The notes below the pieces were generated by a model. It ran no database searches. It was given only the letters and a program-made list of their open reading frames with translations, and had not been told where the DNA came from. Shown piece by piece: positions 6,904 through 60,457 of a stretch of DNA of 64,000 nucleotides. The DNA comes from an uncultured Candidatus Saccharibacteria bacterium. GTDB lineage: Bacteria; Patescibacteriota; Doudnabacteria; UBA920. Within the stretch, counting starts at the first letter, position 1. Each line of letters begins with the position of its first letter. The stretch is taken from positions 128-64,127 of the forward strand of contig CAZTXY010000001.1 in the NCBI GenBank assembly GCA_964617815.1, written 5' to 3'. Both the position numbers and the translations under genes were made by a program.

Positions 6904-7479
6904 TTAACGCTTGGCCCACTGTGGAGACCTGCGAGCGCCACGAAGACCTGGCTTCTTACGTTCTTTCTTACGGTCATCACGAGTTAGCATACCATTCTTT
7001 TTTAAGACTTTGCGTATATCTTCACCAAGGCTCGCTAAAGCCTGAGCAATGCCATGCTGGACTGCCTGAGCCTGGGCGTTAATACCACCACCATTAACTG
7101 TCGCTGTAAAATAGAAGTCACCAGCAAGACCAGTTAACTGAAGAGCCCTAATAGCTCGGTCCTGATTCATACTTTGAGAAAAATACTTTTCCAATGGCTT
7201 TTTATTAATTTGATTCTGGCTTGAGCCTGAAAGCAAACGAATATTAGCAACAGCCGTTTTGCGACGGCCAGTTGCAAAGACATATCTACCACTTGCAAGT
7301 TCTGGTTTACCTAAGCTAACAACAACAGGAGCAGGTGCTTGTTCAATAACGACATCGGAAGCAACAACTTTAGGAGCTTCTTCAGTCGCAACTTTCTTTT
7401 TTATGACGCGCTTTTTAGCAACCGCTTTTGGAGCCGCTTTAACTTTCTTTACATCTTTAGTTGTAGTATCTTTTACCAT
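6904..7479 (-). CDS. rpsI: 30S ribosomal protein S9 with a K/A/V-rich N-terminal extension of about 60 aa
   Basis: C-terminal ...GLRGARRSPQWAKR S9 signature. Confidence 0.85.
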   Translation of the reverse strand: MVKDTTTKDVKKVKAAPKAVAKKRVIKKKVATEEAPKVVASDVVIEQAPAPVVVSLGKPELASGRYVFATGRRKTAVANIRLLSGSSQNQINKKPLEKYFSQSMNQDRAIRALQLTGLAGDFYFTATVNGGGINAQAQAVQHGIAQALASLGEDIRKVLKKNGMLTRDDRKKERKKPGLRGARRSPQWAKR

Positions 7480-7485
7480 AATTGT

Positions 7486-7905
7486 TTATATCTTCTTTTC
7501 AATAGTATATGAATGCTCTGTCCCTTTGACTAATTTCAATCTGGAAAGTATCTTTTTGCGGAATTTAATATCATCTATCATGCTAAATACAGCTTTTTGT
7601 AAGACTGTTTCTGGGCTTCGGACAATTTCATCTTTCAAAGTTTTAACTTTCAGTCCACCCAAATAACCAGAGTGGTGGTAGTATTTCTTTTGATCAATCT
7701 TTCTTCCAGTGAATTTCAGTTTATCGACATTAATAGCTACTACAAAATCGCCCATATCCATATGAGGAGTAAAGGAACGCTTGTGCTTACCACGTAAAAT
7801 ATTTGCAATCTTTGTGGCAACACGGCCCATACTTTGGCCTGAGGCATCAACCTCGTACCAATTGCGAGCAACAGTTTTAGGTAATGTGATTTTCTGAGTT
7901 TTCAT
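7486..7905 (-). CDS. rplM: 50S ribosomal protein L13
   Basis: WYEVDASGQSMGRVATKIANILRGKHK L13 signature. Confidence 0.9.
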   Translation of the reverse strand: MKTQKITLPKTVARNWYEVDASGQSMGRVATKIANILRGKHKRSFTPHMDMGDFVVAINVDKLKFTGRKIDQKKYYHHSGYLGGLKVKTLKDEIVRSPETVLQKAVFSMIDDIKFRKKILSRLKLVKGTEHSYTIEKKI

Positions 7906-7933
7906 ATAATCGTTCTTAGTACTTAACGCAAAT

Positions 7934-8278
7934 TTAGTCTACAAATTCTAGGAGAACTTTACTCTGTCCCGCAGTTGGGTCATTTAACTTTGTGAGTCTA
8001 GTATAACCACCATGGCGCTCTTTGTACTTAGGCCCCATAACTTCCAAAGCTTTCTTGGCAGCATTACGGGTAAGACCTGAAAGTAATAGCCGTCTGACAT
8101 GTAAAGAATCTACTTTAGACTTGGTAATAAGTTTCTCAACGTAAGGTTTTACAGCTCGGGCATTAGCATAACTTGTTTCAATGCGTTCGTACAAAATAGC
8201 CGAAGACGCTAAAGTCCGGAGCAGTTTTCTGCGGTGATCGGGACCTTTACCAAATTTTCGCTTCTTTAAATGTCTCAT
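7934..8278 (-). CDS. rplQ: 50S ribosomal protein L17
   Basis: MRHLKKRKFGKGPDHRRKLLRTL L17 N-terminus. Confidence 0.9.
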   Translation of the reverse strand: MRHLKKRKFGKGPDHRRKLLRTLASSAILYERIETSYANARAVKPYVEKLITKSKVDSLHVRRLLLSGLTRNAAKKALEVMGPKYKERHGGYTRLTKLNDPTAGQSKVLLEFVD

Positions 8279-8306
8279 ATAATAGTTCTTAGATCTGAGT
8301 AATTAG

Positions 8307-9245
8307 TTAACGTCCAAGGGCTTCCTTAATTTCTGTAATAGTTTTTTCCCCAAGTCCTGCAATATTATTAATATCATCGTCAGACAATGCTTTAAGTGCT
8401 TCTACTGAAATAATTCCATTTTTAATCAAAGCATTTTTAGCTCGATTTGATAACTGTAAATTATCTAAATCTTCTGTGCCTTGTGGAACTTCGGTAGGAG
8501 CCTCTGCTGTTTCCTCAGCTACAACTTCCTCTTCGGAAACAGATTCTTCTGCCAATGTAGCACTTCCACCAAATAACATTGCAAAATGGTCTACAAGAAT
8601 GTGAGAAGCAATCTCAATGGCTTCACTACCAGTAATAGTCCCGTCGGTTTCCATGTTCAAAATTAACTTATCATAGTTGGTAATTTGACCAACACGAACA
8701 TTGGTTACATCAAAATAGACAGACTTAACAGGGCTGTAAATAGCGTCAATTGAAAGCATTCCAACTTCAAGCTTCTGGTTTTCTCGAGCTTCAACTGGAA
8801 CATAACCGCGGCCCTGTTCAACTATTAGCTCTAAATCAAAATCACTGGTTTTGTTATCTAAAGTTGCAATGTGCAAGTCTTTGTTTATAACTTGAACCTG
8901 GTCGGTTTCAGAAATATCAGCGGCAGTAACTATACCTTCGCCTTTTTTCTTTAACATTAGTCGCACGGGTTCAGTGCTCACGCTTTTTAAACGAAGCTGT
9001 TTTAAACTCAAAATAATCTGAATCACATCTTCTTTAACATTTGGTATTGTTGAAAATTCATGATCAACATACTTAATCTTAACTGCAGTAACTGCAGCTC
9101 CAGGCATTGAGGACAAGAGCACTCTACGCATTGCATTAGCAATGGTTACACCATAACCAGGATACAATGGCTCTAAGGTCACTGTATACTTATTGCCTTC
9201 AACGTGCTCGATGTGAGCTTGATTTGGTAATGGAATCGCTTCCAT
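8307..9245 (-). CDS. rpoA: DNA-directed RNA polymerase alpha subunit
   Basis: N-terminal domain plus C-terminal domain (LSNRAKNAL...G) architecture; sits between rpsD and rplQ. Confidence 0.9.
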   Translation of the reverse strand: MEAIPLPNQAHIEHVEGNKYTVTLEPLYPGYGVTIANAMRRVLLSSMPGAAVTAVKIKYVDHEFSTIPNVKEDVIQIILSLKQLRLKSVSTEPVRLMLKKKGEGIVTAADISETDQVQVINKDLHIATLDNKTSDFDLELIVEQGRGYVPVEARENQKLEVGMLSIDAIYSPVKSVYFDVTNVRVGQITNYDKLILNMETDGTITGSEAIEIASHILVDHFAMLFGGSATLAEESVSEEEVVAEETAEAPTEVPQGTEDLDNLQLSNRAKNALIKNGIISVEALKALSDDDINNIAGLGEKTITEIKEALGR

Positions 9246-9349
9246 AGTTTACCTCTCTAACGATTGACGTCAACCCGTAATCTTGCGTGATCAAACGTTA
9301 ATTAATGGATTATATCTAGTGACTAGGCACTAGTAGCTAGGGACTAGGT

Positions 9350-9958
9350 TTAAATACGACTGTAATGTTCAACAATTAACTGAGTGTTGATAATATTTTC
9401 AATCTGTTCTGGCGATGGAGCAGTTAGCACTTTTCCAGACAGATCTTTAGCTGTGAGTTCCAACCAATCCTGTGTAGATGTAGCTTTCATCTTGTCTTTC
9501 TGAGTAATCATATATTTAGAAGTCTGCTTACTCTCCCTGACACTCACAATATCACCAGGCTTTGTTGCGTAAGAAGGAATATCAACTTTTTTTCCATTAA
9601 CAGCAAAAAATCCATGATTCACTAATTGTCTGGCTTGAGCCCGAGTTTCTGCAAAACCTAATCGGTAGACTACATTATCAAGTCGGAATTCTAAAAGTTT
9701 AAGTAAATTATCACCAGTAACACCAGCTTGCTTCAAAGCTTTATTAAAATAACGCAAGAACTGTTTTTCCAAAACTCCATAATTAATTTTAGCTTTTTGC
9801 TTTTCACGTAGCTGCGTTCCATATTCTGAAAGACGACCTCGTCCTTGACCATGTTGACCAGGAGGGGTGCTACGTTTTTGCAAAATCCTAGCATCCTTAG
9901 CAGTAAATGCCATGCCTAGTCTTCTTGCTTTTCTAACTTTTGGGCCAGTATATCTCAT
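9350..9958 (-). CDS. rpsD: 30S ribosomal protein S4
   Basis: MRYTGPKVRKARRLG and the S4 domain. Confidence 0.9.
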   Translation of the reverse strand: MRYTGPKVRKARRLGMAFTAKDARILQKRSTPPGQHGQGRGRLSEYGTQLREKQKAKINYGVLEKQFLRYFNKALKQAGVTGDNLLKLLEFRLDNVVYRLGFAETRAQARQLVNHGFFAVNGKKVDIPSYATKPGDIVSVRESKQTSKYMITQKDKMKATSTQDWLELTAKDLSGKVLTAPSPEQIENIINTQLIVEHYSRI

Positions 9959-10020
9959 AGGGTAGTACTTAGTTCTTAGTGCTTAGTACTTAGTGAGTAC
10001 TAAATACAAAACTGTATAAA

Positions 10021-10485
10021 TTAAACGCGACGGACTTTCTTAGGGCGAACACCGCCGTGAGCGGTTGGAGTCTGATCTTTAATAGTTAAAACTGTTAAGC
10101 CAGAACCTTGTAATGCGCGAATGGCTTGTTCTCGGCCACTACCGATTCCTTTAATCAATACATCAACTTCAGCAAGCCCACGTTCCTTGATTCTAACAAG
10201 CGTGTCTTCCATTGTTTTACCACCAGCATAAGGAGTAGACTTTTTAGAACCTTTAAAACCAGCTTTTCCTGCGCTGCCCCAAGCTATAACATTTCCGCTT
10301 GGGTCAGTTGCCGTAACAATCGTGTTGTTATAAGTCGAGTTAATATAAATCTTGCCTTTAGTAACCTTAATCTTAGACTTTTTCTTTTTACTAGACTTAA
10401 TCTTTGAGGCAATATCAGCAGTAGCAGGAACAATAGCTTCAGCTTCGGTGGTTACTTCTTCAGTTGTTGTTGTTTCTTCAATCAT
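10021..10485 (-). CDS. rpsK: 30S ribosomal protein S11 with a T/E/K-rich N-terminal extension of about 45 aa
   Basis: GIAWGSAGKAGFKGSKKSTPYA...HGGVRPKKVRRV S11 core. Confidence 0.9.
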   Translation of the reverse strand: MIEETTTTEEVTTEAEAIVPATADIASKIKSSKKKKSKIKVTKGKIYINSTYNNTIVTATDPSGNVIAWGSAGKAGFKGSKKSTPYAGGKTMEDTLVRIKERGLAEVDVLIKGIGSGREQAIRALQGSGLTVLTIKDQTPTAHGGVRPKKVRRV

Positions 10486-10576
10486 AAAAAAAGTTCTTAG
10501 TGCTTAGTTCGTAGTGCTTAGTGTGTAACCCAAATGCAGATCTGAGGACTGAGCACTTAGGACTTGGGACTCCTGA

Positions 10577-10966
10577 TTAGGTCTTTTCTGAAGACTTCTT
10601 ACGGCCACTACCTGCTGTTTTTCTAATGTTACCGTGTCTAGTTCGGGAGTTAGTTTTAGTTCTTTGTCCTCGTACTGGCAATCCACGCATATGTCTGATC
10701 CCGCGATATGAGCCAATTTCTTTAAGTCGCTTTATATTAAGGACAATTTGTTGGCGTAAGTCTCCTTCAATTTTATAATTCTTTTCAATAAAATCTCGGA
10801 GCTTGTTAACATCTTCATCACTAAGATCTTTGGTACGAATATTTGGATCAATTTTGGTCGCAGCTAAAATTTTCTTAGATAATGTCAAACCAACACCAAA
10901 AATATAAGGCAATGCTGCTTCAATTCTTTTTTCGTTTGGAATGTTTACTCCTGCGATACGGGCCAT
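10577..10966 (-). CDS. rpsM: 30S ribosomal protein S13
   Basis: [10 protein letters not shown]...[16 protein letters not shown]. Confidence 0.9.
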
Positions 10967-14570: not shown

Positions 14571-16352
14571 CTATTCTTCAATAACTGCTTTAATGCGGCG
14601 CATTCCAGCTGAGACCGCTTCTTCTTTTGCAATTCTAACTTTACCAATCTGGCCTGTGTGCTCAACATGGGGACCACCACAAAATTCTCTGGAAATAACT
14701 TCGTTTGTTTTGGAATCTATAATTGTGTAAACAGAAACAACGTCATCGTATTTTTCACCAAACAGTCCAATCGCGCCAAGTTCACGCGCTTTTGCAAGAG
14801 GCATCATTTCACGTGTCACAGTCGCATCTCTCACAATCCAGTCATTCACTAAATCTTCAACTTCTTTTTTTTGTTCATCGGTCATCTTTTGCGGATAGGT
14901 AAAGTCAAATCTTGTTCGCTCTTCGGTAATATTACTGCCTTTTTGCCAAACATCTTCGCCAAGAACTTGCCGTAAAGCCTTATGCATTAAGTGAGTGGCG
15001 GTGTGGTAACGCACAACTTTGTCGCTAGTATTTGCTAAGCCGCCTTTAAATTCTCCGGCGCTGGCAGTTCGAGATAAGTCTTGATGTTTTTTAAATTCAT
15101 CTTTAAATTCTTGCTCGTCTACATGCTGACCTGAGGCTTCTGCTAATTCTTTTGTAAGTTCCCACGGGAAACCAAAAGTTTGATATAAGTTAAAGGCGTC
15201 TGTCCCAGTAATTTTATTTTGGGAAGCAAACTGTTTCTCAAATTCTTTCAAACCTTTTTCCAAGGTTTTAACAAACTTAGATTGTTCTCCTTCAATGATG
15301 GCAAAAATGTGCTCAGATCGTTCAACCAATTCAGGATAACTTTCAGCATAAATGGTTACAACTTTACCGACTAAACTTTCAAGCCAATGCGGCTGTAAAT
15401 TAAGTAACTTGGCGAAGACCATGGCGCGACGAAGAAGTCTTCGGACAATATAGCCACGATCTTTATTTGAAGGCTCAACGCCATCCCCCACAATGAAAAC
15501 GCTAGCTCGGATGTGATCGACAATAATACGAGCTCGCCTAACTTCAGTGTTAGTCATAATATCTTGCGACAATGCAATAACTTCAAATAATGGCGCAAAA
15601 AGTTCAGTATCATAAACAGAAGTTTGACCATTAAGCACAGTCAGTGTGCGATCTAAGCCCATACCTGTATCAACGTTTGTTTTTGCCAAAGGAATTAGTG
15701 CTCCATCGGCTTTCTTTTCATACTGCATGAAGACATTATTCCAAATTTCTACCCAACGCTTATCGTCTTTGGTTTCTTGAAAATTTGCCGGAGTTGGAGT
15801 GCCGTCATCTATCCAGTAAAACATCTCTGTGTCTGGTCCACATGGTCCTGTGGTCCCCGCAATCCACCAGTTATCTTCTTTTGGCAAAAATGCAACGCGT
15901 GAATCCGGTACCCCTAGAGATTTCCAAATCGAAGCAGATTCATCATCACGAGGGGCGTCTTCGTCACCTGCAAACACTGAAAAAGCTAAACGATCTAAAG
16001 GAATATTTAACCACTCTGGTGAAGTTAAAAATTCAAAGCTCCATTTTATAGAGTCTTCTTTGAAATAATCTCCCAAACTCCAGTTGCCGAGCATTTCAAA
16101 AAAAGTTAGATGAGTGTCATCACCCACTTCATCAATATCGCCAGTGCGAATACATTTTTGCGAATTTGCTAAACGCTTTCCTTTTGGGTGATCTTGGCCA
16201 AGCAAAAAAGGCACCAAAGGATGCATGCCGGCCATGGTATATAAAACGGAAGCGTCATTCTCTGGAACTAAAGAAGCTGATGGAATAATTACATGGCCTT
16301 TGGAAGCAAAAAAATCAAACCATTTCTGTCTTAGCTCATTTCCTGTAATCAT
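14571..16352 (-). CDS. alaS: alanine--tRNA ligase, short form lacking the C-terminal C-Ala/DHHA1-like domain
   Basis: Class II catalytic motifs (FFASKGH, CIRTGDIDEVGDDTHLTFFEMLGNWS) plus editing-domain HxxxH (HTATHLMH) and CGGPHVEHTG motifs; only 593 aa. Confidence 0.8.
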   Translation of the reverse strand: MITGNELRQKWFDFFASKGHVIIPSASLVPENDASVLYTMAGMHPLVPFLLGQDHPKGKRLANSQKCIRTGDIDEVGDDTHLTFFEMLGNWSLGDYFKEDSIKWSFEFLTSPEWLNIPLDRLAFSVFAGDEDAPRDDESASIWKSLGVPDSRVAFLPKEDNWWIAGTTGPCGPDTEMFYWIDDGTPTPANFQETKDDKRWVEIWNNVFMQYEKKADGALIPLAKTNVDTGMGLDRTLTVLNGQTSVYDTELFAPLFEVIALSQDIMTNTEVRRARIIVDHIRASVFIVGDGVEPSNKDRGYIVRRLLRRAMVFAKLLNLQPHWLESLVGKVVTIYAESYPELVERSEHIFAIIEGEQSKFVKTLEKGLKEFEKQFASQNKITGTDAFNLYQTFGFPWELTKELAEASGQHVDEQEFKDEFKKHQDLSRTASAGEFKGGLANTSDKVVRYHTATHLMHKALRQVLGEDVWQKGSNITEERTRFDFTYPQKMTDEQKKEVEDLVNDWIVRDATVTREMMPLAKARELGAIGLFGEKYDDVVSVYTIIDSKTNEVISREFCGGPHVEHTGQIGKVRIAKEEAVSAGMRRIKAVIEE

Positions 16353-16438: not shown

Positions 16439-17479
16439 TTACCGCGCCGGAATACGTCCGGCAGAAACAAGCAATCGCTTGAGCAGTTTGTTCGTCTGAG
16501 CGCCAATCTTATTGGATCTCCGAACCTCAGCCAGGATCTCCTTGAGAATCACGTCTTGGCTGATGAACTCTTCGAGCTCAGGAGGCTCCACTGCCAAGTT
16601 GCGACTGGTCGGAGCAGAATCTGCAGACAACACCCCAGTGGCAGTGTCGATGATCCTCTGGGCGTCCGAACCTGCCGGCACTTCGAGTTCACTTGTGCTG
16701 AAACGTAAGTCAACTCGCTCATTGAAAAATGCCTTAGCCAAATCTGCGAAGAGCAAGCGCCTTTCGATCAGCGTATTAATCATCATCACTTCAATGGCCG
16801 TCCGATGAACAGGATCCATATCCCATCCATTGTTTACCAGTAGTTGCATAAACAGCTGACCCCTCTCCAAGTCAATGCCCACGATGTACATGGTCGGCTC
16901 GATGAATCCCCGGTCTCGAGTTTGCTTGGTAAGCTCTTCGCACACCTCATCATAGAGACGCGGAAAACTTATATACCGGAGAGTTCCTTGATACCCTCCG
17001 AAGTCAAGGGGTTTATCTAGCGGCTTATACTGGGGATACTCCGCGAAGTTATGCACGAACTGAAACAGCATGCTCAGTTGTGGGAGACTAGTCATCTGAC
17101 TTTTGATCTTGTTGACCTCCACGATCCAGTCTGGATCATTAGTCGATGACCCCTCTGGTACTGGAGGTAAAGTATAGATCATGCCGCGGACTTTGCCCTT
17201 AGCCTTATGACCATCACCACAACAATACCCAATGTTCCCTGACGTAGCCCCCACAACATGGCAAAACCTTGTCAGCATGGCATTCCCGTGTGTTAAGACA
17301 TTGAGGTGATCTGGATCGCTCTTCTCCTGAGCACGAAAATCAGACTCAAAATCGTCTAGAGCTATTCCAATTTCAGGCGCAAACTTCGCAGTTAGCGCGT
17401 TGATGTTTGAATTCCCCCCTTTCAGATTTTCCCCCAAAATCTGCGTCGCCGCCAAGACTATTCCGGATTTATTGCTCAC
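16439..17479 (-). CDS. hypothetical protein in GC-rich island A
   Basis: 346 aa ORF at about 50% GC versus under 40% for flanking genes; GGGAGG RBS 6 nt upstream; Cys-rich patch CHVVGATSGNIGYCCGDGH; no family recognised. Confidence 0.5.
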   Translation of the reverse strand: MSNKSGIVLAATQILGENLKGGNSNINALTAKFAPEIGIALDDFESDFRAQEKSDPDHLNVLTHGNAMLTRFCHVVGATSGNIGYCCGDGHKAKGKVRGMIYTLPPVPEGSSTNDPDWIVEVNKIKSQMTSLPQLSMLFQFVHNFAEYPQYKPLDKPLDFGGYQGTLRYISFPRLYDEVCEELTKQTRDRGFIEPTMYIVGIDLERGQLFMQLLVNNGWDMDPVHRTAIEVMMINTLIERRLLFADLAKAFFNERVDLRFSTSELEVPAGSDAQRIIDTATGVLSADSAPTSRNLAVEPPELEEFISQDVILKEILAEVRRSNKIGAQTNKLLKRLLVSAGRIPAR

Positions 17480-28797: not shown

Positions 28798-29112
28798 TTA
28801 TTTTAGCTTATATCTGTACTTTTCGATATCCACAAGAAAGTCTGCCCCCACAAAGACCCCATCTTTCTGGAGTAACTCTCTTTGTAACTCTTTTGTAACT
28901 TCCCAATTTCCTTTAATACTAATTTGCCCTTTATTATTAATCACGCGCCACCAAGGAACGTTTGAGCCTTGCCCAAGAGCGCGTAATATCCCTCCAACCT
29001 GCCTGCTAGCTCTAGGACTGCCGGCATTTGCTGCGACCTGGCCATAACTAACCACAGCACCCTTTGGCACCGACTTTACAAATACTATGACTCTATCCTT
29101 AAAATCACTCAC
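28798..29112 (-). CDS. alkyltransferase-like (ATL) protein: MGMT DNA-binding domain without the active-site Cys
   Basis: VVSYGQVA...PWWRVIN, where Trp replaces the Cys of the PCHRV motif. Confidence 0.65.
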   Translation of the reverse strand: MSDFKDRVIVFVKSVPKGAVVSYGQVAANAGSPRASRQVGGILRALGQGSNVPWWRVINNKGQISIKGNWEVTKELQRELLQKDGVFVGADFLVDIEKYRYKLK

Positions 29113-30733
29113 TGGTTTTTGTTTTAAAATTATTTAAAAAAGTCACCACACGCTCGTCTAATTTTATATCATTTACATGGATAGGGCGTTGAAGTGTAAT
29201 ACCCTGCAACGTGCGACAACGCGAAAGTGCTACATATAATTGCCCATGCGCAAATGTTCCCGTCCCTAAATCAATATGAACTTTACTAAAAGTTTTTCCT
29301 TGACCTTTGTGAATTGTCACAGCCCAAGCCAGCTTTATTGGATATTGCGTAAATGATCCGATTACTTCGCTTTCTATTTTATTTGTTTCTGAATCAAAGA
29401 CATACTTAAAAAATTCCCAAGTGTACGGCTCAATCTGCTGTGTCGTGCCGTCTTCCAACTCTACTATTATATTATCTGCCTTATCTTCCTGTTTTTGAAA
29501 ACTTAAAATTTTTCCCATGGTCCCGTTAACCCACCGGCTTTCCATGTCATTATTAAGCAACATAACCTGTGCACCCTCGCGCAACGTTACTATCTCTTCT
29601 GTAGGCAGACGACTACCTGAAAAAGTTCCGTGAAGACGCCCGCGATATTTTTTTGCCTCTCCAAAAAGTTTGTTTAAATGTGTCTGATTAATAGCTGAGG
29701 CACGGCTATTAGTCGTAGTCAAACTGATAATAAAATCCCCTTCCTCATATTGAAAATCTGGGTTAACCTGATTGTTTAAATGTGCCAAATCCTCATCTGT
29801 CGTGCAATTATCACGAACCGCATTTAATAAATTAATAAAGACTTCATCTTTTTGACGATAGACAGTTTCCAGTTCAATTAAACGGCAATCAATTTGGTTA
29901 AACACGTGAGCATCAAAAAAATATGGCGTAGCGTATTCTCCAAATAAATTAGCACCAGAATCCTCCGAAACGGCCTCCACAGGTGGAAGCTGGTAAAGGT
30001 CGCCAATAAAAACAAGCTGGTAACCCCCAAATGGGGCGTGCGAACTGCGACCATTAAGACGCAAAAATTTATCCAAACAATCCAAAAGGTCAGAGCGCAC
30101 CATAGAAATTTCGTCTATTATTATAGTGTTTAACTTTTGCAATAATTTTCTTTTTGGCTGATATGGCTTTAGCTGTTTTACTCGTCCAACAGTAATGTCT
30201 GCCGGAAAACCGCAAAACGAATGAATTGTTTGGCCTTCGACATTTAGCGCAGCCACTCCTGTTGGCGCTAACACCACAACCTGCTTTTCTGTGGTTGCCC
30301 GAAAATAATTTAGTAACGTAGATTTTCCCGTACCAGCACGTCCAGTAATAAAAACATTGCTATTGCTGTTATTTAAAATCTGCAGTGCATTTTTTATTTG
30401 TGGATTCTGGTCCATGACTGGAATTTCATGAATAGAGCCATGGGCGATACCAGATTTCTTTTTTTTGCTAAGTGTTCGAGCTGGATTTTTGGCACCTATT
30501 TTACTAAGCCGCGAAGTAATAGCCCCCGGGTTGCGTCCGTAATGACCAACGGCCCATTCGACAAAGCCCCCGTAATCTTCGGGCATGCCTTGTTCTTTTT
30601 GCATAAACTTTTCCCAATCCTGTTTTAATTCATCCAACTCTGAATCTTTCCAAGGCTCATAAGCACGCGGAAAAGTCTTGCGAATTTCCAAAAGTTCTTC
30701 TGGTGGTGGAATGCTATGTGCCATGATATTCAA
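29105..30733 (-). CDS. Pif1/RecD-like SF1 DNA helicase
   Basis: Walker A GRAGTGKST, DEISMV and the C-terminal TIHKGQGKTF motif. Confidence 0.75.
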   Translation of the reverse strand: MNIMAHSIPPPEELLEIRKTFPRAYEPWKDSELDELKQDWEKFMQKEQGMPEDYGGFVEWAVGHYGRNPGAITSRLSKIGAKNPARTLSKKKKSGIAHGSIHEIPVMDQNPQIKNALQILNNSNSNVFITGRAGTGKSTLLNYFRATTEKQVVVLAPTGVAALNVEGQTIHSFCGFPADITVGRVKQLKPYQPKRKLLQKLNTIIIDEISMVRSDLLDCLDKFLRLNGRSSHAPFGGYQLVFIGDLYQLPPVEAVSEDSGANLFGEYATPYFFDAHVFNQIDCRLIELETVYRQKDEVFINLLNAVRDNCTTDEDLAHLNNQVNPDFQYEEGDFIISLTTTNSRASAINQTHLNKLFGEAKKYRGRLHGTFSGSRLPTEEIVTLREGAQVMLLNNDMESRWVNGTMGKILSFQKQEDKADNIIVELEDGTTQQIEPYTWEFFKYVFDSETNKIESEVIGSFTQYPIKLAWAVTIHKGQGKTFSKVHIDLGTGTFAHGQLYVALSRCRTLQGITLQRPIHVNDIKLDERVVTFLNNFKTKTSE

Positions 30734-30817
30734 TAAAAATAAATAAGACTGCTATATATTACACTATATCAGATAAAGAAATTCTAAAGACTTTTAAATA
30801 AAATTTCTTTACATTTC

Positions 30818-30846
30818 TTGCGTATTTAAGCTAATAATTTTATACT
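30818..30846 (+). promoter_or_regulatory. sigma70-like promoter for the island-B gene (TTGCGT-17-TATACT)
   Basis: Hexamers with 17-nt spacer about 50 nt upstream of the ATG at 30897. Confidence 0.5.
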
Positions 30847-30896
30847 GTCGCTACTCGCACACCTCGAGACACTTGGAAAATCCTGTAGGAGGGAAG

Positions 30897-31445
30897 ATGA
30901 ACACAAGCCATCAAGAAGGCGTTGTGCGGTTGCAGAGCAGGCTGGGATTGCTTGGATTTAACTACTTTCCCCCGAAAAGCGGAAGGGATGACAAGAAGCA
31001 CTGCTTTTCAAAATCTGTCGGGCCTGCCCGCCACAAGACTGCAGTCCGAATTTGGCTGAAGCTTTTCAACGAAGGCTTCGGCAGCAAAGAACGGTATGCC
31101 GCTTCTATCATTCTGGTCGGCAATGGCTGGGGAGAACTCTGGAAGTTTAAATCCTTGGCCTGGAGCAAAAATCCTGAGGGAAATCTCAAACGCTTGTTTG
31201 CTAAAGCAAAGCTAGCAAGCAAATTTCTAGGCTCCCAGATTTACTGCCCCACTTTGGGGCACGGCTTGGGAAAAGGGATGAAACCCATTCTCGTCGCAGA
31301 CAGACGGCGACACATGACCATTGCCTGGCGCTGTTGCCACGCTGGATGTCAGTCGACTTTCAGGCTTGAAAGCAAACTCTCCAATGCAATCATGGTTCAG
31401 ACCGACAAGGCCTTTCTGCTTGAACTAGCGACCACTGGCGTCTAA
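30897..31445 (+). CDS. hypothetical Cys/His/Trp-rich protein in GC-rich island B
   Basis: 182 aa from the ATG at 30897, preceded by AGGAGG at 30887-30892; the ORF-track start at 30873 is TTG. About 50% GC; contains WRCCHAGC and YCPTLGHG. A stop-free 190-codon frame is improbable by chance. Confidence 0.5.
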   Translation: MNTSHQEGVVRLQSRLGLLGFNYFPPKSGRDDKKHCFSKSVGPARHKTAVRIWLKLFNEGFGSKERYAASIILVGNGWGELWKFKSLAWSKNPEGNLKRLFAKAKLASKFLGSQIYCPTLGHGLGKGMKPILVADRRRHMTIAWRCCHAGCQSTFRLESKLSNAIMVQTDKAFLLELATTGV

Positions 31446-31451
31446 CGCAAA

Positions 31452-31485
31452 GCGCCACAGCCTACCAACTGGTAGGTTGTGGCGC
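31452..31485. terminator. bidirectional terminator
   Basis: 15-bp stem GCGCCACAGCCTACC/GGTAGGTTGTGGCGC with one G-U pair, 4-nt loop, immediately after the island-B stop. Confidence 0.6.
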
Positions 31486-31497
31486 TAAAATTTTATA

Positions 31498-32211
31498 CTA
31501 ATACTTAATAAAGGTGTTTACTTTAGCCTTTGCTCTCAAATCGGCTAATAACTGATTGGAATGCTCAGATAATTTTTCTTGCTTTAAGCCTTCTTTTATC
31601 TGCTCTTTTGCTTCCTGTTCCTTACCTGCTTCTGGCGTAATGGAGTTGTCTTTCATATATTGCACGATCTCTTCGTCGGTAATGTTTACTTTATCACCGA
31701 GTATTTTTTCTACCTTCTTTTGAATTTCAATCTGATCACGTAAATCTTGGCGAGTCATCCCTTGAACCGCTAAGCTTTCGTCTAAGGTTCCCCCATTCGC
31801 CGAGAATTGATCTTCATATCGTTTTATATCTGGATCAATATCTGAATCGGTAATCACAATATTCATGTCACTTGCCGCCTTATTAACAAGCTGTTTGTTT
31901 ATCAACAATTCCAAAGCATCTTTTCCACCTTGCTTTTCAAGCTCTGAAATTACCGAAAAACGAGTAATTACATGGCCATCAACCGAAGCCACTACAACTA
32001 AATTACCGAACTTGTAAATTAATCCTGCCAAAATTAACAAGCAGCCAAGCACAATGGCGCCATTTAAAAATTTCTTTTTGTGCTTATCCCAAAAACTTCG
32101 ACTATTTAATTCCCCATTTTCTGAAACTAGAGAATTCCCCGTAACTGTTGCTAACTCACTGTCTTTTAAATTTTGTGTCTCAATTTGAGACTCATTTTGT
32201 TGTGTATCCAT
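31498..32211 (-). CDS. membrane-anchored SurA-N/PpiD-like chaperone domain protein
   Basis: N-terminal TM helix, then a SurA N-terminal-like helical domain (LINKQLVNKAASDMNIVITDSDID); no clear PPIase motif. Confidence 0.45.
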   Translation of the reverse strand: MDTQQNESQIETQNLKDSELATVTGNSLVSENGELNSRSFWDKHKKKFLNGAIVLGCLLILAGLIYKFGNLVVVASVDGHVITRFSVISELEKQGGKDALELLINKQLVNKAASDMNIVITDSDIDPDIKRYEDQFSANGGTLDESLAVQGMTRQDLRDQIEIQKKVEKILGDKVNITDEEIVQYMKDNSITPEAGKEQEAKEQIKEGLKQEKLSEHSNQLLADLRAKAKVNTFIKY

Positions 32212-32258
32212 TTATAAATAATATCATATAGGCAAAAAAATGCCAAAATAATGAAAAT

Positions 32259-32283
32259 GCAGGGAGCTTATTCAGCTCCCTGC
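32259..32283 (-). terminator. terminator after the island-C operon
   Basis: Perfect stem GCAGGGAGC/GCTCCCTGC followed by a T-run on the minus strand. Confidence 0.55.
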
Positions 32284-32313
32284 ATTAAGCGCGCGTAGTT
32301 TGCGCAAAAAAAT

Positions 32314-32562
32314 CTAGTGCGTTTCGCCCCGAAGGCGGACGACCCGAATGACGTGTGGCTTCACGTAATTCGGGTGACGATGACAGCCTGGGCAACCGAG
32401 CTGTAGTTCATACATCATGCCCATTTCTCGCTTTAGGCCTTCGGCCAAAGTAATGACTTCCTGTCTGGAGAACTCCTCAGGATCTAGCCTGGCGGTGAAC
32501 TCTCGTCCTGGCTGAAGCGCGATACTAACCCGCAAAATATCGCAAGGTGTTGCAAGTGACAT
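32314..32562 (-). CDS. small CPGC/His-motif protein, island-C paralogue 1
   Basis: 82 aa; AGGAGG RBS 5 nt upstream; C-terminal GCPGCHRHPNYVKPHVIRV; paralogous to the upstream gene. Confidence 0.5.
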   Translation of the reverse strand: MSLATPCDILRVSIALQPGREFTARLDPEEFSRQEVITLAEGLKREMGMMYELQLGCPGCHRHPNYVKPHVIRVVRLRGETH

Positions 32563-32576
32563 GGTTTCCTCCTGGC

Positions 32577-32855
32577 TTAACAGACATAGTCTGTGCCGGA
32601 TATGCTTGTGGCCACAGCCAGGTTTAAAACTTCCCGCCTGACCACCAGTACGTGATTAATCGGCTGGCCCTCATGACAACTACACCCAGGGCAACCGCCG
32701 CCGTGTTCCGTGACGCAGAACTCACGAGCAAGTTCTGCTTGCAAGCGCGCAATACGTTCAGCCGTAAACTGGTACCGCAACTCTGCGGCAAAGCTTTGGC
32801 CTTCGCGCAAAGTCCGAGCAAGAGCCATAACCCTTGCTGGCGTCATCAATTCCAT
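32577..32855 (-). CDS. small CPGC/His-motif protein, island-C paralogue 2
   Basis: 92 aa; GGGAGG RBS; C-terminal GGGCPGCSCHEGQPINHVLVV aligns with paralogue 1 (TP...L, GCPGC, HV..V.R). Confidence 0.5.
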   Translation of the reverse strand: MELMTPARVMALARTLREGQSFAAELRYQFTAERIARLQAELAREFCVTEHGGGCPGCSCHEGQPINHVLVVRREVLNLAVATSISGTDYVC

Positions 32856-32932: not shown

Positions 32933-32940
32933 GGCAAACT

Positions 32941-32968
32941 AAAACGCCTTGGCAAGCCAAGGCGTTTT
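32941..32968. terminator. bidirectional terminator
   Basis: Perfect 12-bp stem AAAACGCCTTGG/CCAAGGCGTTTT; serves the pilin gene above it. Confidence 0.6.
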
Positions 32969-32982
32969 AGACTAACTATAAT

Positions 32983-40440: not shown

Positions 40441-40547
40441 TGGAACTATGAATTCGTCGCCTGTTTTGGGGCTTTAGCATGCCTACGCTAAACCTTGAAA
40501 CAGCCGAAATCTGAAATGTAGTTACAACCAAATAGGAGCGATAGACT

Positions 40548-40862
40548 ATGAATGGTCTGAGCACTGTCGAAATCGATGGCCGAAGGGTCATCGAAATCAC
40601 TGACTTCAACAAGTCCAAGGCGATCGCCGCCCCGATCCATCTCGCCATCACGGCGGCCAAGATGGGCATCGAGACCCAGAGCGAGAGCCATCATCCGGCC
40701 CACCCGGAAGCAAAGGTCATTTCGTACCCGGTGTGGATGGCAGGATGGGGGGGCAACATGAAGGTTTTCCCGATGACGGCCCCGCAGTTGATCGACTATC
40801 TGCGTCGTGGCCGTGGCGAGCACTCGCCCGACCACACGACCGTCGTCGCCGCGACGGTCTAG
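40548..40862 (+). CDS. hypothetical protein in GC-rich island D
   Basis: 104 aa, about 58% GC; AGGAG RBS 7 nt upstream; no family recognised; minus-strand ORFs here are composition artefacts. Confidence 0.5.
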   Translation: MNGLSTVEIDGRRVIEITDFNKSKAIAAPIHLAITAAKMGIETQSESHHPAHPEAKVISYPVWMAGWGGNMKVFPMTAPQLIDYLRRGRGEHSPDHTTVVAATV

Positions 40863-40888
40863 ACCGAAACCGCGCAACCCGCGCACAC

Positions 40889-40920
40889 AGGCCACCCCGA
40901 CACTTTGTCTGGGGTGGCCT
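40889..40920 (+). terminator. terminator of the island-D gene
   Basis: GC-rich stem AGGCCACCCCGACA/TGTC(T)GGGGTGGCCT followed by TTCTCATTT. Confidence 0.55.
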
Positions 40921-40940
40921 TTCTCATTTATAATCAAAAA

Positions 40941-40973
40941 AAGCGGCACCCTTTGTTGCAAAGGGTGCCGCTT
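40941..40973. terminator. bidirectional terminator
   Basis: Perfect 15-bp stem AAGCGGCACCCTTTG/CAAAGGGTGCCGCTT, A-run before, T-rich after. Confidence 0.6.
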
Positions 40974-45799: not shown

Positions 45800-46990
45800 T
45801 TAGTTGTTGGGCTTCATAGCCCTGTTCCAGCGGCTGCCGCTGGAGTTGTTCCGAACCTGCCCACCACCGTCGGTGGGAGCAAGAGCGCGTTGTCCTCCGT
45901 TGTTACGCCGATCCCCGCGGCGCTCATCCGGAGCGACCACAGGATCGTCCTGATGCTTGATCGGCTTGGTGTCAGGACTTTGCCCATTGTTACGGATGAT
46001 CACCGGAACGAGAACCCAATTTCGGGTTACTCGCGGCTCAAAAGTTGCACACTCCCTCTCCCCAAAGGAGACTGTGATCACGCCATCTTCCCAGACAGCC
46101 GATCCGTTTCGATCCAGCGCAGTTGTCTTGTTGCGCTTGACCTCAACGGTTTGAGTGTGATTGTCAGGCCAGCTGACCTTGAGTTGGCCTTTGTCGTGCG
46201 AAGGATTTGTCGCATTCGCGACACGATCGCCAGCAGCTGTGCTGGTGGTCGAAAGCAGTACTGCCTTCCCACGCTCACCCTTCGAGCTACCGGCGTACGA
46301 AATCACGCCGGCGATGACCGTCTTCACCACAGTGCCCACGATCCCACCGACAGCCTTTTCGCGGCCAGAAGCCTCGCCCTTATATGAAATCTCAGGGCAA
46401 TCCGGACACGGAACGGTCACTGTTGTGGTCACCGGTTTTGGAGTCTCCGGTGTCGGCGGCAATGGTACCTCGGTAGTCCAAGTGTTCTCACACTTGTCCT
46501 CCCAATAGTAAATCCTCTTGCCGTCCCGATCCTCGAACTTGATGAGGGTCGGCGGTTCGTCCACGACACAGGGTGTCGCTTCCGGCTCAGGCGGGGTTGT
46601 AACCCACTTGAGCCGATTGAACGTCACACCGCCAGTGGAAGTTCGACATCCCTCCAAGTAACCAAGGGTCCAAGAACCTGGATCAAGGTAGACCCAGGCT
46701 TCGGGGTTGTCGCCCAGGTAGATCACCCGAGCGATTTTTCCGAATTCGTTCCAGGCCGGGAGCTTCCGGTATTTCTCCGGAATCTCCTTGACCTGGACAC
46801 GCTTGTACCCCTCGAACACCGACTTATCACCGGTGTACTTGGGGTGCGAGAAGACCTCGCTGGAGAGCTTCGTCATCTCATAGCGATCGCTACGGATGAG
46901 AGCCTTGCGATTCTGCGCATGCGCTGCCTGGGCCGTGAGGCCCAGGAGAAGCGCCGTGAGAAGAACGAGGGAAAAGATCACCTTGTTCAT
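45800..46990 (-). CDS. hypothetical secreted protein in GC-rich island E
   Basis: 396 aa, about 58% GC; signal peptide MNKVIFSLVLLTALLLGLTAQAAHA; Pro/Thr-rich linker; CPDCPE; C-terminal low-complexity R/N/G-rich tail. Confidence 0.45.
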   Translation of the reverse strand: MNKVIFSLVLLTALLLGLTAQAAHAQNRKALIRSDRYEMTKLSSEVFSHPKYTGDKSVFEGYKRVQVKEIPEKYRKLPAWNEFGKIARVIYLGDNPEAWVYLDPGSWTLGYLEGCRTSTGGVTFNRLKWVTTPPEPEATPCVVDEPPTLIKFEDRDGKRIYYWEDKCENTWTTEVPLPPTPETPKPVTTTVTVPCPDCPEISYKGEASGREKAVGGIVGTVVKTVIAGVISYAGSSKGERGKAVLLSTTSTAAGDRVANATNPSHDKGQLKVSWPDNHTQTVEVKRNKTTALDRNGSAVWEDGVITVSFGERECATFEPRVTRNWVLVPVIIRNNGQSPDTKPIKHQDDPVVAPDERRGDRRNNGGQRALAPTDGGGQVRNNSSGSRWNRAMKPNN

Positions 46991-47005: not shown

Positions 47006-47734
47006 TCAGCGGCCCTCAACCAAATTTGCATCGTTCGCCGCCTCCAAAATCATGCGGAGGCTAGCGAAGAGAGTTTCTTGCCCATAGTAGTTCCGGGTCT
47101 TTGGCAGACGCACACCCAGTTGGGCCAGCGCGCCAATTGCCGGACCTCCTGTCTGCGCCGAAAAGGTGGAGCTCTGAGAGCCCCCCCACGGAATCCTCAA
47201 CTGTCCTGACCCCGTGGTAAATTCAAACACCTCGGCGTCAGATAGTGACTTTCCCGTGATCTCACCGCGCTGATTGCGCAGTGTGATTTCGACGTAAACT
47301 CGGTATGCGACCTTACGCGAGTTCTGCCCGCGCAAAGAGAAACTCTCCTGCACCGGCACCGAACTGACGTTCGGCTGAATACGCATAATGAGCTCGGCGT
47401 ACTTACGCTCCGCAACTGGTCGGCTGTCACCGAAAGCCCCCGCTTCGATCAAGCGGTTCACCAGTTTCTCGGCCATTGCCGAGTTCTGGAAACCACTAAC
47501 CTCTACGAAGACCGGAGTGAGCTGCTGAGGCGCGGATTGCGCCGGAGCATTAGGAACCGGCTGAGATGCCGGAACCGGCGCTGGCTGCGACGTCGCATTC
47601 GGGTCACCCTGCGCGGGACCCCAACGACGAGCCGCTTCTTCGCGGGTCATCAACTTGCGGCCCGACTGGGCCAAAGCGATCGGTGCCAACACGGCAACGA
47701 TCAGGAACGCGACAAAAATCTTGGTGGTGCTCAT
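47006..47734 (-). CDS. hypothetical secreted protein in GC-rich island E
   Basis: Start moved to the internal ATG (MSTTKIFVAFLIVAVLAPIALAQ signal peptide), which has an AAGGAG RBS 7 nt upstream; Pro/Gln-rich linker; about 58% GC. Confidence 0.45.
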   Translation of the reverse strand: MSTTKIFVAFLIVAVLAPIALAQSGRKLMTREEAARRWGPAQGDPNATSQPAPVPASQPVPNAPAQSAPQQLTPVFVEVSGFQNSAMAEKLVNRLIEAGAFGDSRPVAERKYAELIMRIQPNVSSVPVQESFSLRGQNSRKVAYRVYVEITLRNQRGEITGKSLSDAEVFEFTTGSGQLRIPWGGSQSSTFSAQTGGPAIGALAQLGVRLPKTRNYYGQETLFASLRMILEAANDANLVEGR

Positions 47735-47963
47735 GGATCTTTCTCCTTGTGTATCTGCGTGATGTATGGCCATGAACAGCCATGGGGACGACTAAATATT
47801 AACTAATCGCTTAGTTATCATTAGCCCTCCTCAGAGCTGTCAATGAACTTTCCAACTGATTGTGCTTTTAGGCACATTCCTGCCCCGCCCTCGCGGCGGG
47901 ACAAGATCTGCATGAAAGCTGTAACTTAATAGTATACTCTTCTACTTACATTCCTGTCGAGGC

Positions 47964-59992: not shown

Positions 59993-60421
59993 CTAGGTGA
60001 AAACAATCTCTTCGCGCCACTCGGACAAGCCGGCTTCAAAAATACTTGCCCGCTTCTCGATCTGCCAAAGAGGCACGCCATGAATATTGCGGCTTGCGGC
60101 CTCAAGTGGGTTACAAACCAAGCGAATGACTCGGCAGTGAGCCTGGCGAGATTTTGCTGCCTCCCAGTAACGCTCAGCCTCCCAGAGCATGACGTTGGTG
60201 TTGTCAACCACGATCAGCGGGGCACCTGCGTAAAGGATCTCCAAGAACTTGTCCCAGCAAGTCCCATGTGCATCGGGCAAGAGGCTCGAGCAGAACCTGA
60301 ACTCTCTGTTTTCATCATAGAAGTATTCGTCAGCAGAGCAAACGATTGCTTCCGGAAAATTCTGGGCCACATAGTGTGACTTCCCAGAACCTGAGATCCC
60401 GCGCATAATAACGATGGTCTG
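59993..60421 (-). CDS. P-loop kinase of the AAA_33 type (predicted nucleotide/polynucleotide kinase)
   Basis: Walker A GISGSGKS, LIVVDNTN Walker-B-like motif; about 52% GC; start moved to MQTIV, which has AGGAGG 7 nt upstream. Confidence 0.55.
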   Translation of the reverse strand, partial: QTIVIMRGISGSGKSHYVAQNFPEAIVCSADEYFYDENREFRFCSSLLPDAHGTCWDKFLEILYAGAPLIVVDNTNVMLWEAERYWEAAKSRQAHCRVIRLVCNPLEAASRNIHGVPLWQIEKRASIFEAGLSEWREEIVFT

Positions 60422-60457
60422 CATGACTATTCTCCTCCTCTTTGACATCCGACATCA

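Follow-up and report, generated by a model that had tools for sequence, protein, structure and literature searches.

A GC-rich island in a Patescibacteria contig holds a rare, maintained protein gene with a predicted zinc site

We analysed a stretch of 64,000 nt from an uncultured Candidatus Saccharibacteria bacterium (assembly GCA_964617815.1, contig CAZTXY010000001.1; hereafter, the window), in which a GC-rich island had been described, in an original prediction made from the letters alone, as a self-contained cassette encoding a Cys/His/Trp-rich protein. Judged by comparison with related sequences, the open reading frame (ORF) at 30897-31445 is a genuine, monocistronic and selectively maintained protein gene. 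The reading that we favour as a whole, with slightly better than even confidence, is that of a genuine gene whose product would contain a structural zinc site and bind nucleic acid, and which would have been acquired long ago by the ancestor of its clade. All of the predicted elements (ORF, ribosome-binding site, promoter, terminator and neighbouring genes) were found where they had been placed, several with corrected details, and the gene and its signals are as follows.

30776-30860, plus strand: conserved upstream region with a putative sigma-70 promoter (read from the sequence and from its conservation in relatives)
30819-30824 and 30842-30847, plus strand: putative -35 (TTGCGT) and -10 (TATACT) hexamers separated by a 17-nt spacer (read from the sequence)
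30887-30892, plus strand: Shine-Dalgarno sequence AGGAGG, 4 nt (GAAG) before the ATG
30897-31445, plus strand: ORF of 182 residues, from the ATG at 30897 to the TAA at 31443-31445 (ORF list)
31451-31486, either strand: hairpin of 16-17 bp, probably a bidirectional intrinsic terminator (folding and relatives)

Coding evidence, expression signals and family

The ORF encodes a product of 20.4 kDa with an isoelectric point (pI) of 10.2, and the predicted start at ATG 30897, the length of 182 residues and the strings WRCCHAGC, YCPTLGHGLG and HCFSKS were all confirmed on the sequence. In what follows, L-numbers denote homologous contigs or loci compared with the window and P-numbers denote homologous proteins: L001-L005 are five contigs with one allele (90% DNA identity to the window), L094 holds a partial copy of the gene, L092 is a 20.6-kb stretch of a 38-kb contig, and L093 is 19.5 kb of a 22-kb contig. 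An upstream TTG at 30873, which would serve as an alternative start for a protein of 190 residues, is not conserved in L001, and therefore we place the start at the ATG.

Substitutions between relatives fall mainly at third codon positions. Between the window and L001 we counted 55 differences inside the ORF, distributed as 10/10/35 over codon positions 1/2/3, and the 17 differences in codons 14-108 are, without exception, synonymous and at the third position. The corresponding counts are 22/20/81 between L007 and L008, and 16/6/32 between the window and the partial copy on L094. The reading frame stays open throughout the eight other full-length sequences of the family and in the partial copy; the sole indel is of 3 nt, in frame and near the C-terminus, and no relative has a difference that disrupts the frame. 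This third-position bias, together with the preserved frame, indicates that the ORF is under purifying selection. Between the two subfamilies of the family (49-50% amino acid identity), synonymous sites are saturated (33 identical codons vs. 30 expected) while amino acids are conserved, and therefore the protein, and not an RNA, is what is conserved.

The original prediction had weighed a structured RNA against a protein and preferred the protein, a choice that the substitution pattern supports. It had also proposed an Rfam scan, which we ran: Rfam 15 at the gathering threshold returned no match in the whole 64-kb window, and at E-values up to 10 the segment 30600-33000 returned chance-level matches only, none of which spanned the ORF. 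ARAGORN detected no tRNA or tmRNA. A codon-guided alignment of four sequences gave a structure conservation index (SCI; RNAalifold) of 0.04-0.42, with a few short local hairpins and no consensus structure across subfamilies. A non-coding structured RNA at the island (RNase P RNA, tmRNA or a large RNA not yet described), with an open frame that is incidental, would suit the GC jump inside an AT-rich genome and the fact that the region folds better than dinucleotide shuffles (z = -3.5, terminator included) and than synonymous-codon shuffles (z = -1.5 to -3.0), but the lack of any Rfam or tmRNA match in these scans, the run of 17 consecutive synonymous changes, the amino acid identity of 49% kept at saturated synonymous sites, and the low SCI across subfamilies all speak against it, so that we rate it as extremely improbable and, on sequence grounds, regard it as effectively excluded. 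The GC-rich island is thus settled as an ordinary, maintained protein gene and not a hidden RNA gene, which removes a false lead. We also observed that the whole 64-kb window lacks a tRNA gene, despite carrying a ribosomal-protein/RpoA cluster (6904-10966) and an alanyl-tRNA synthetase gene (14571-16352).

The expression signals were examined in the same set of relatives. The predicted promoter, TTGCGT-17-TATACT, is present, although a consensus promoter scan did not call it because TTGCGT matches TTGACA at only 3 of 6 positions. The upstream region diverges by ~8% from L001 and is nearly identical to L094 across 30812-30860, a segment that is nearly invariant across three alleles; this near-invariance, despite third codon positions that differ by 19-37% among the same alleles, argues for a functional promoter. 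At the equivalent place, the homologues on L092 and L093 have the near-consensus arrangement TTGACA-17-TAAAAT. The upstream region shares its intergenic space with the divergent Pif1 gene (start at 30733). AGGAGG likewise stands, with a spacing of 4 nt instead of the 5 nt first given; the same hexamer with a 4-nt spacer is found in L007, L008, L092 and L093, and AGGGGG in L001 and L094. As for the terminator, predicted as a 15-bp stem directly after the stop codon, the hairpin is there, but its stem is 16-17 bp long and begins 6 nt past the stop, between the ORF and a convergent SurA-like gene. Its T-tract is weak (AAAATTTT). In L001, the stem shows a compensatory C-G to T-A change at 31455/31482, and a G to A change at 31460 turns a G.U pair into A-U; in L007, L008, L092 and L093, a GC-rich hairpin and a T-run are found directly past the stop. 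We conclude that the hairpin is probably a bidirectional intrinsic terminator. Since promoter region, ribosome-binding site and hairpin terminator are all conserved, the gene is read as a monocistronic unit.

The family is very small. A phmmer search of 1.84 billion cluster representatives recovered only P0001 (94% identical), P0002 (51% identical) and P0003 (a 74-residue fragment), and a profile search of 5.8 billion clusters added only P0004. Cluster listings brought the total to nine distinct full-length sequences (the window protein and eight others) among ~15 billion proteins, and these form two subfamilies that are ~50% identical. No homologue was found in 185,579 GTDB representative genomes, in IMG/VR or among PLSDB plasmids; JGI returned nothing beyond a contig that was already known, and a phage collection gave a single match, which we rejected. 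That match, HTVC048P gp46 (a protein of the phage tail-region family DUF7483, from a Pelagibacter phage), reached E = 5e-4 in tblastn with 28% identity over residues 58-180, but the invariant cysteines of the family are not aligned in it; with P0002 the E-value was 4.8, and the family profile gave an hhalign probability of 0.9%, as expected of a chance match. The 182-residue protein had no match in Pfam or NCBIfam, none among the PADLOC families, and none in profile searches against PDB sequences; its best PHROGs match, to a family of unknown function, was not significant (E = 0.049), and Foldseek against PDB and BFVD returned no significant structural neighbour. The earlier remark that the protein resembles nothing recognisable was thus borne out in every library searched. 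By these searches, the protein is an orphan family confined to a tiny bacterial clade. Its rarity (nine sequences, with no relatives by sequence or fold) makes it a clear illustration of a gene specific to one lineage, here in a bacterium that is reduced and probably episymbiotic.

The fragment P0003 was considered as a natural gene fusion and rejected. It is encoded on L091, a 988-nt JGI contig that matches the window in its middle only (contig positions 222-898 against window 31314-31991, at 98%) and has unrelated ends. Its chimeric 74-residue ORF carries the last 41 residues of the protein, and the contig is probably an assembly chimera.

Genomic setting and predicted function

The gene lies between two oppositely oriented neighbours. 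The left neighbour, divergent, encodes a Pif1 helicase (PF05970, E = 2e-31), and the right neighbour, convergent, encodes a SurA_N_3-like protein (E = 5e-6, with 26.9 bits narrowly missing the Pfam cut-off of 27.2) and has its stop codon at 31498-31500 on the minus strand. These are the helicase and the chaperone-like gene of the original prediction, the latter identified by a match below the cut-off. One further gene of the divergent operon bears on the function.

28798-29112, minus strand: alkyltransferase-like (ATL) gene, encoding a DNA_binding_1 protein of 104 residues in which PWWRV replaces PCHR

Since PWWRV takes the place of the PCHR motif of O6-alkylguanine transferases, we read this product as an ATL damage-binding protein and not as an active transferase. 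The ATL gene and the 3' end of Pif1 share an overlap of 8 nt. Compared with L001, the segment 28798-30733 (Pif1 and ATL) differs at 42-53% of third codon positions, and the surrounding genes at 14-26%, a pattern which suggests that the Pif1-ATL segment was replaced by recombination from a more distant relative.

The slot of the gene is shared by three diverged lineages, in each of which it stands divergent from an operon that starts with Pif1 or SET, followed by ATL, and converges on the next downstream gene. In L092 and L093, the order is glycosyltransferase, YgjP-like, a 116-residue protein, Zn_ribbon_2, MsrA, ATL, SET and then, on the opposite strand, the gene, so that SET takes the position that Pif1 holds in the window; in L093, a NERD protein is also present. 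MsrA follows further along the operon strand, directly in the lineage of the window and after one or two more genes in L092 and L093. Between lineages, the products of the neighbouring genes share 35-80% identity, and the value for this ORF, 49%, is unremarkable among them; synonymous divergence from L001 is 0.19 for the gene and 0.12-0.26 for its neighbours. A shared syntenic slot and a divergence like that of the neighbours indicate that the gene is not a recent arrival. More distant relatives (L095-L097, found through ATL proteins that are 68-69% identical) lack the gene, and they also lack the Pif1 and SET flanks, so they provide no clean empty site. ATL relatives carry Patescibacteria names in NCBI, which, taken with the pilin and type II secretion system genes, suggests a Patescibacteria (CPR) host; the diverged relatives that carry a homologue are probably Patescibacteria. 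Pif1 itself was uninformative as a probe for close genomes (best match 54%, with matches over many phyla).

The protein is very basic, with 30 Lys and Arg residues against 11 Asp and Glu, and the other subfamily has a pI of 9.6. An AlphaFold2 (AF2) model built from a four-sequence alignment (pLDDT, the predicted local distance difference test, 74; pTM, the predicted template modelling score, 0.76) places an N-terminal helix, five strands and a long helix in residues 1-112 as an alpha/beta domain, followed by a beta-hairpin at 128-146 (strands 128-135 and 137-146), a short strand and two helices. C117, H122, H139, C146 and C151 are invariant in the family; a CPxxxH motif precedes the predicted hairpin and CxxC or CxxxxC follows it (C117-x4-H122 ... 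C146-x2/4-C151). P0002 and P0004 have sub-threshold Pfam matches (E = 0.04-0.15) to Zn_ribbon_RPB9, DUF4379 and the FmdE treble clef. According to the model and the invariant residues, C117, H122, C146 and C151 around the predicted hairpin probably form a structural zinc site of the zinc-ribbon type.

In the mechanism that we propose, this Cys/His set would bind structural zinc and the protein would bind nucleic acid, most likely DNA, a suggestion drawn from the basic charge, the zinc motif and the DNA-related neighbours (ATL, Pif1, SET and NERD). Encoded divergently from such an operon, a small basic protein would most simply bind DNA to regulate the transcription of that operon, or else assist in chromatin or repair. 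Hc1 and MC1-alpha, two basic DNA-associated proteins, are methylated by prokaryotic SET enzymes (PMC3980110), which makes the SET-adjacent homologues candidate substrates; in the lineages that carry SET, the protein might thus be modified by the adjacent lysine methyltransferase. That the protein is a zinc-dependent DNA-binding protein in one of these roles is a tentative proposal, held with low confidence. If the link to the ATL-Pif1/SET operon is true, it would represent a new DNA-binding or regulatory part of DNA-damage handling, in a group in which such regulation is almost unknown.

Several points weigh against our favoured reading. The zinc-ribbon Pfam matches are all under their thresholds, and both zinc binding and DNA binding are predictions from the sequence and the model, itself of medium confidence (pLDDT 74, from four sequences) and with no significant structural neighbour. 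The divergent neighbour varies (Pif1 or SET), leaving no conserved pairing of regulator with target or of enzyme with substrate. For the ancient acquisition, no donor homologue lends support, and GC content at third codon positions (GC3) is high despite saturated synonymous sites, so that amelioration would fit only an extremely GC-rich donor. Finally, the invariant polar residues H5, Q6, E7, D32, K33, K34, H35, N76, E80, K83, D135, R138, H139 and D170 would also fit the active site of an enzyme.

This last point leads to the view that the protein is not a simple binder or regulator but an enzyme with nucleic acid as its substrate, such as a divergent metal-dependent nuclease. The density of the invariant polar set (H5-Q6-E7 and D32-K33-K34-H35 in particular, with the single positions listed above), the alpha-beta-beta-beta-beta-alpha core of the N-terminal part in the AF2 model, and the DNA-repair and DNA-metabolism genes next door are all consistent with it. 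However, no nuclease family matches by sequence or by fold, and no HNH, GIY-YIG or HUH motif was found. The PD-(D/E)xK spacing is also absent: E80 and K83 stand at i and i+3 on the fifth predicted strand, D32 precedes the strand 34-41, and the next strand, 48-55, has no acidic residue. We therefore consider an enzyme unlikely, though not negligibly so.

A bolder possibility, to which we assign a small probability, is that the protein represents a new fold or family of zinc-dependent DNA-transaction proteins of a small Patescibacteria clade, functionally coupled to ATL and Pif1 or SET, with a GC-rich coding sequence kept by selection on the mRNA and not by ancestry; a regulator that senses damage or redox state, or a chromatin protein methylated by SET, would be examples. 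The more modest conclusion is that of a novel and very rare family, with nothing that points to a new kind of mechanism.

Foreign composition and the question of mobility

The ORF has a GC content of 0.508 vs. a window average of 0.39, in agreement with the ~50% GC in AT-rich surroundings first reported. Its GC3 is 0.58 vs. 0.21-0.39 in neighbouring host genes, and it contains no TTA, GGT, CGT, AGT or CCA codons, all of which are common in host genes. Across lineages, GC3 is 0.58, 0.53, 0.47 and 0.47, and is uniform along the gene, despite the saturation of synonymous sites. Two simple explanations were rejected. Codon bias driven by expression does not account for these values, given that the genes for S9, L13, L17, S4, S11, S13 and RpoA have a GC3 of 0.24-0.34 and that the ORF avoids GGT and CGT; nor does a strand effect, since host genes on the plus strand have normal GC3. 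In our best reading, the foreign composition is left over from an early acquisition by the clade ancestor and is not a sign of current mobility. The options for the high GC3 are incomplete amelioration since an ancient transfer from a very GC-rich donor that is missing from all databases, selection for mRNA stability, and repeated replacement at the same site. Such a steady GC excess at synonymous sites across diverged lineages poses a small but real puzzle about the amelioration of foreign genes.

Selection at the RNA level atop coding, whether for mRNA stability or for a dual-function mRNA, would account for a GC3 that stays at 0.47-0.58 in all lineages, above that of the neighbours, while synonymous sites are saturated, and the ribosomal-protein genes are not rich in GC3, hence there is no translational codon bias to invoke. 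Moreover, each of the four mRNAs folds better than its synonymous-codon shuffles (z = -2.3, -3.0, -2.3 and -1.5). These z-scores are modest, however, and come from four sequences that are not independent; no specific structure is conserved, and seven other ORFs of the window with GC3 of at least 0.54 look like ordinary foreign genes, which makes a horizontal origin the more economical account. We judge RNA-level selection to be improbable, slightly more so than the new-fold proposal.

The preferred reading of an old acquisition must also be set against that of a present-day mobile element, as bears on an exact 11-bp direct repeat around the gene.

30836-30846, plus strand: left copy of the repeat AATTTTATACT, overlapping the -10 hexamer; significance uncertain
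31489-31499, plus strand: right copy of AATTTTATACT, just past the terminator and reaching into the SurA-like stop codon; significance uncertain

The 64 kb contain just these two copies, which exactly enclose the GC-rich segment, an arrangement with an empirical chance of ~0.3%. On this basis, the gene could be the cargo or the enzyme of a site-specific mobile or selfish cassette of ~650 bp, with the repeats as a target duplication or an attachment core. Foreign codon usage would suit such a cassette, as would the end of DNA homology between L007 and L008 right past the terminator, with different genes downstream, and the variability of the locus, which holds a second GC-rich island (Island C) in the window, GC-rich ORFs of 98 and 103 residues in L092, and a gene for a RAYT-like Y1 transposase upstream in L004. 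Against this, the same slot is kept in lineages whose neighbouring proteins have diverged to 35-80% identity, and the synonymous divergence of the gene equals that of its neighbours. The relatives give no support to a target duplication, and we draw no conclusion from the repeat: it is degraded to 10/11 in L001 and absent from L092 and L093. No recombinase, transposase or HUH signature was detected: searches for an IS200/IS605 Y1 (HUH) enzyme or a small recombinase found no Pfam match at E-values up to 1-10, and no His-hydrophobic-His motif occurs among the invariant residues. The gene has no second copy in the window or in any of the loci retrieved, searches of phage and plasmid records and of IMG/VR returned none, and no empty site was seen among close relatives. 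We hold a mobile cassette to be a little less probable still than RNA-level selection. The "self-contained cassette" first described is thus retained in that the gene is monocistronic and foreign in composition, but it is an old syntenic resident with no demonstrable mobility.

The Y1 transposase gene of L004 is a separate, neighbouring gene. In this strain variant, the sequence upstream (positions 1-746 of the short contig, with the junction at ~30771 of the window) is not Pif1 but a gene for a Y1_Tnp (RAYT-like) protein of 221 residues, which both contains and is flanked by GGGGACTCCTTTG-type hairpins.

Other ORFs of the window also differ from the host in composition. Island C and five further ORFs, the latter with a GC3 of 0.55-0.66 vs. 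a host range of 0.19-0.42, are listed here.

32314-32562 and 32577-32855, minus strand: Island C, two tandem paralogous ORFs of 82 and 92 residues (second GC-rich island, GC3 ~0.55)
16439-17479, 40488-40961, 45800-46990, 47006-47773 and 59993-60448, minus strand: GC3-rich ORFs, four without a Pfam match and one AAA_33 kinase-like

A G-C-P-G-C ... H motif is common to the two Island C ORFs, which have one Shine-Dalgarno sequence each; perfect hairpins stand on either side of the pair, at 32256-32286 and 32939-32970. Their codon-position substitutions relative to L002 are 5/3/13 and 24/20/37, and neither ORF has a significant match in Pfam, NCBIfam, PHROGs or PADLOC. Between the SurA-like gene and Island C, a perfect AATGCAGGGAGCT/AGCTCCCTGCATT hairpin underlies an Rfam match below threshold, to the traJ 5' UTR (window 32212-32324, plus strand; 30 bits, E = 0.033); most likely, this is simply a terminator. 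Orphan genes of foreign composition seem to be scattered over the genome.

Comparison with known systems

The closest likeness in sequence motif is to the zinc-ribbon and treble-clef fingers (Zn_ribbon_RPB9, PF02150; DUF4379, PF14311; zf-Tbcl_FmdE, PF23475), with which the family shares two Cys/His knuckles that flank a predicted beta-hairpin, and to which P0002 and P0004 match weakly over residues 127-155. These matches score 12-14 bits vs. curated values of 23-25, and the window protein itself has none; in addition, one ligand is His instead of Cys, and the N-terminal domain of 110 residues has no counterpart in these fingers. In the order of its predicted elements (four to five strands and a helix, then three strands and helices), the protein resembles the beta-beta-beta-beta-alpha repeats of PUR-alpha and Whirly proteins, and weak Foldseek matches to 8cht, 5fgp, 3k44 and 2gia recur, but with probabilities of 0.02-0.18 and template modelling (TM) scores of ~0.2 they are not significant.

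Ada is a small zinc-cysteine protein that controls alkyltransferase genes, and its N-terminal domain is a Cys4-zinc methyl-acceptor. The Cys/His protein of the window is similarly encoded divergently from an operon with an alkyltransferase-like gene. It differs from Ada, however, in having no match to Pfam Ada_Zn_binding, another ligand pattern and no AraC-type DNA-binding domain, and the comparison is one of analogy only.

The last comparison is with chlamydial Hc1 and Methanosarcina MC1-alpha. The protein has no sequence similarity to either, the lineage of the window carries Pif1 instead of SET, and both binding and methylation are hypothetical here; the likeness is that of a small, Lys/Arg-rich basic protein whose gene adjoins a SET gene in two of the three lineages.

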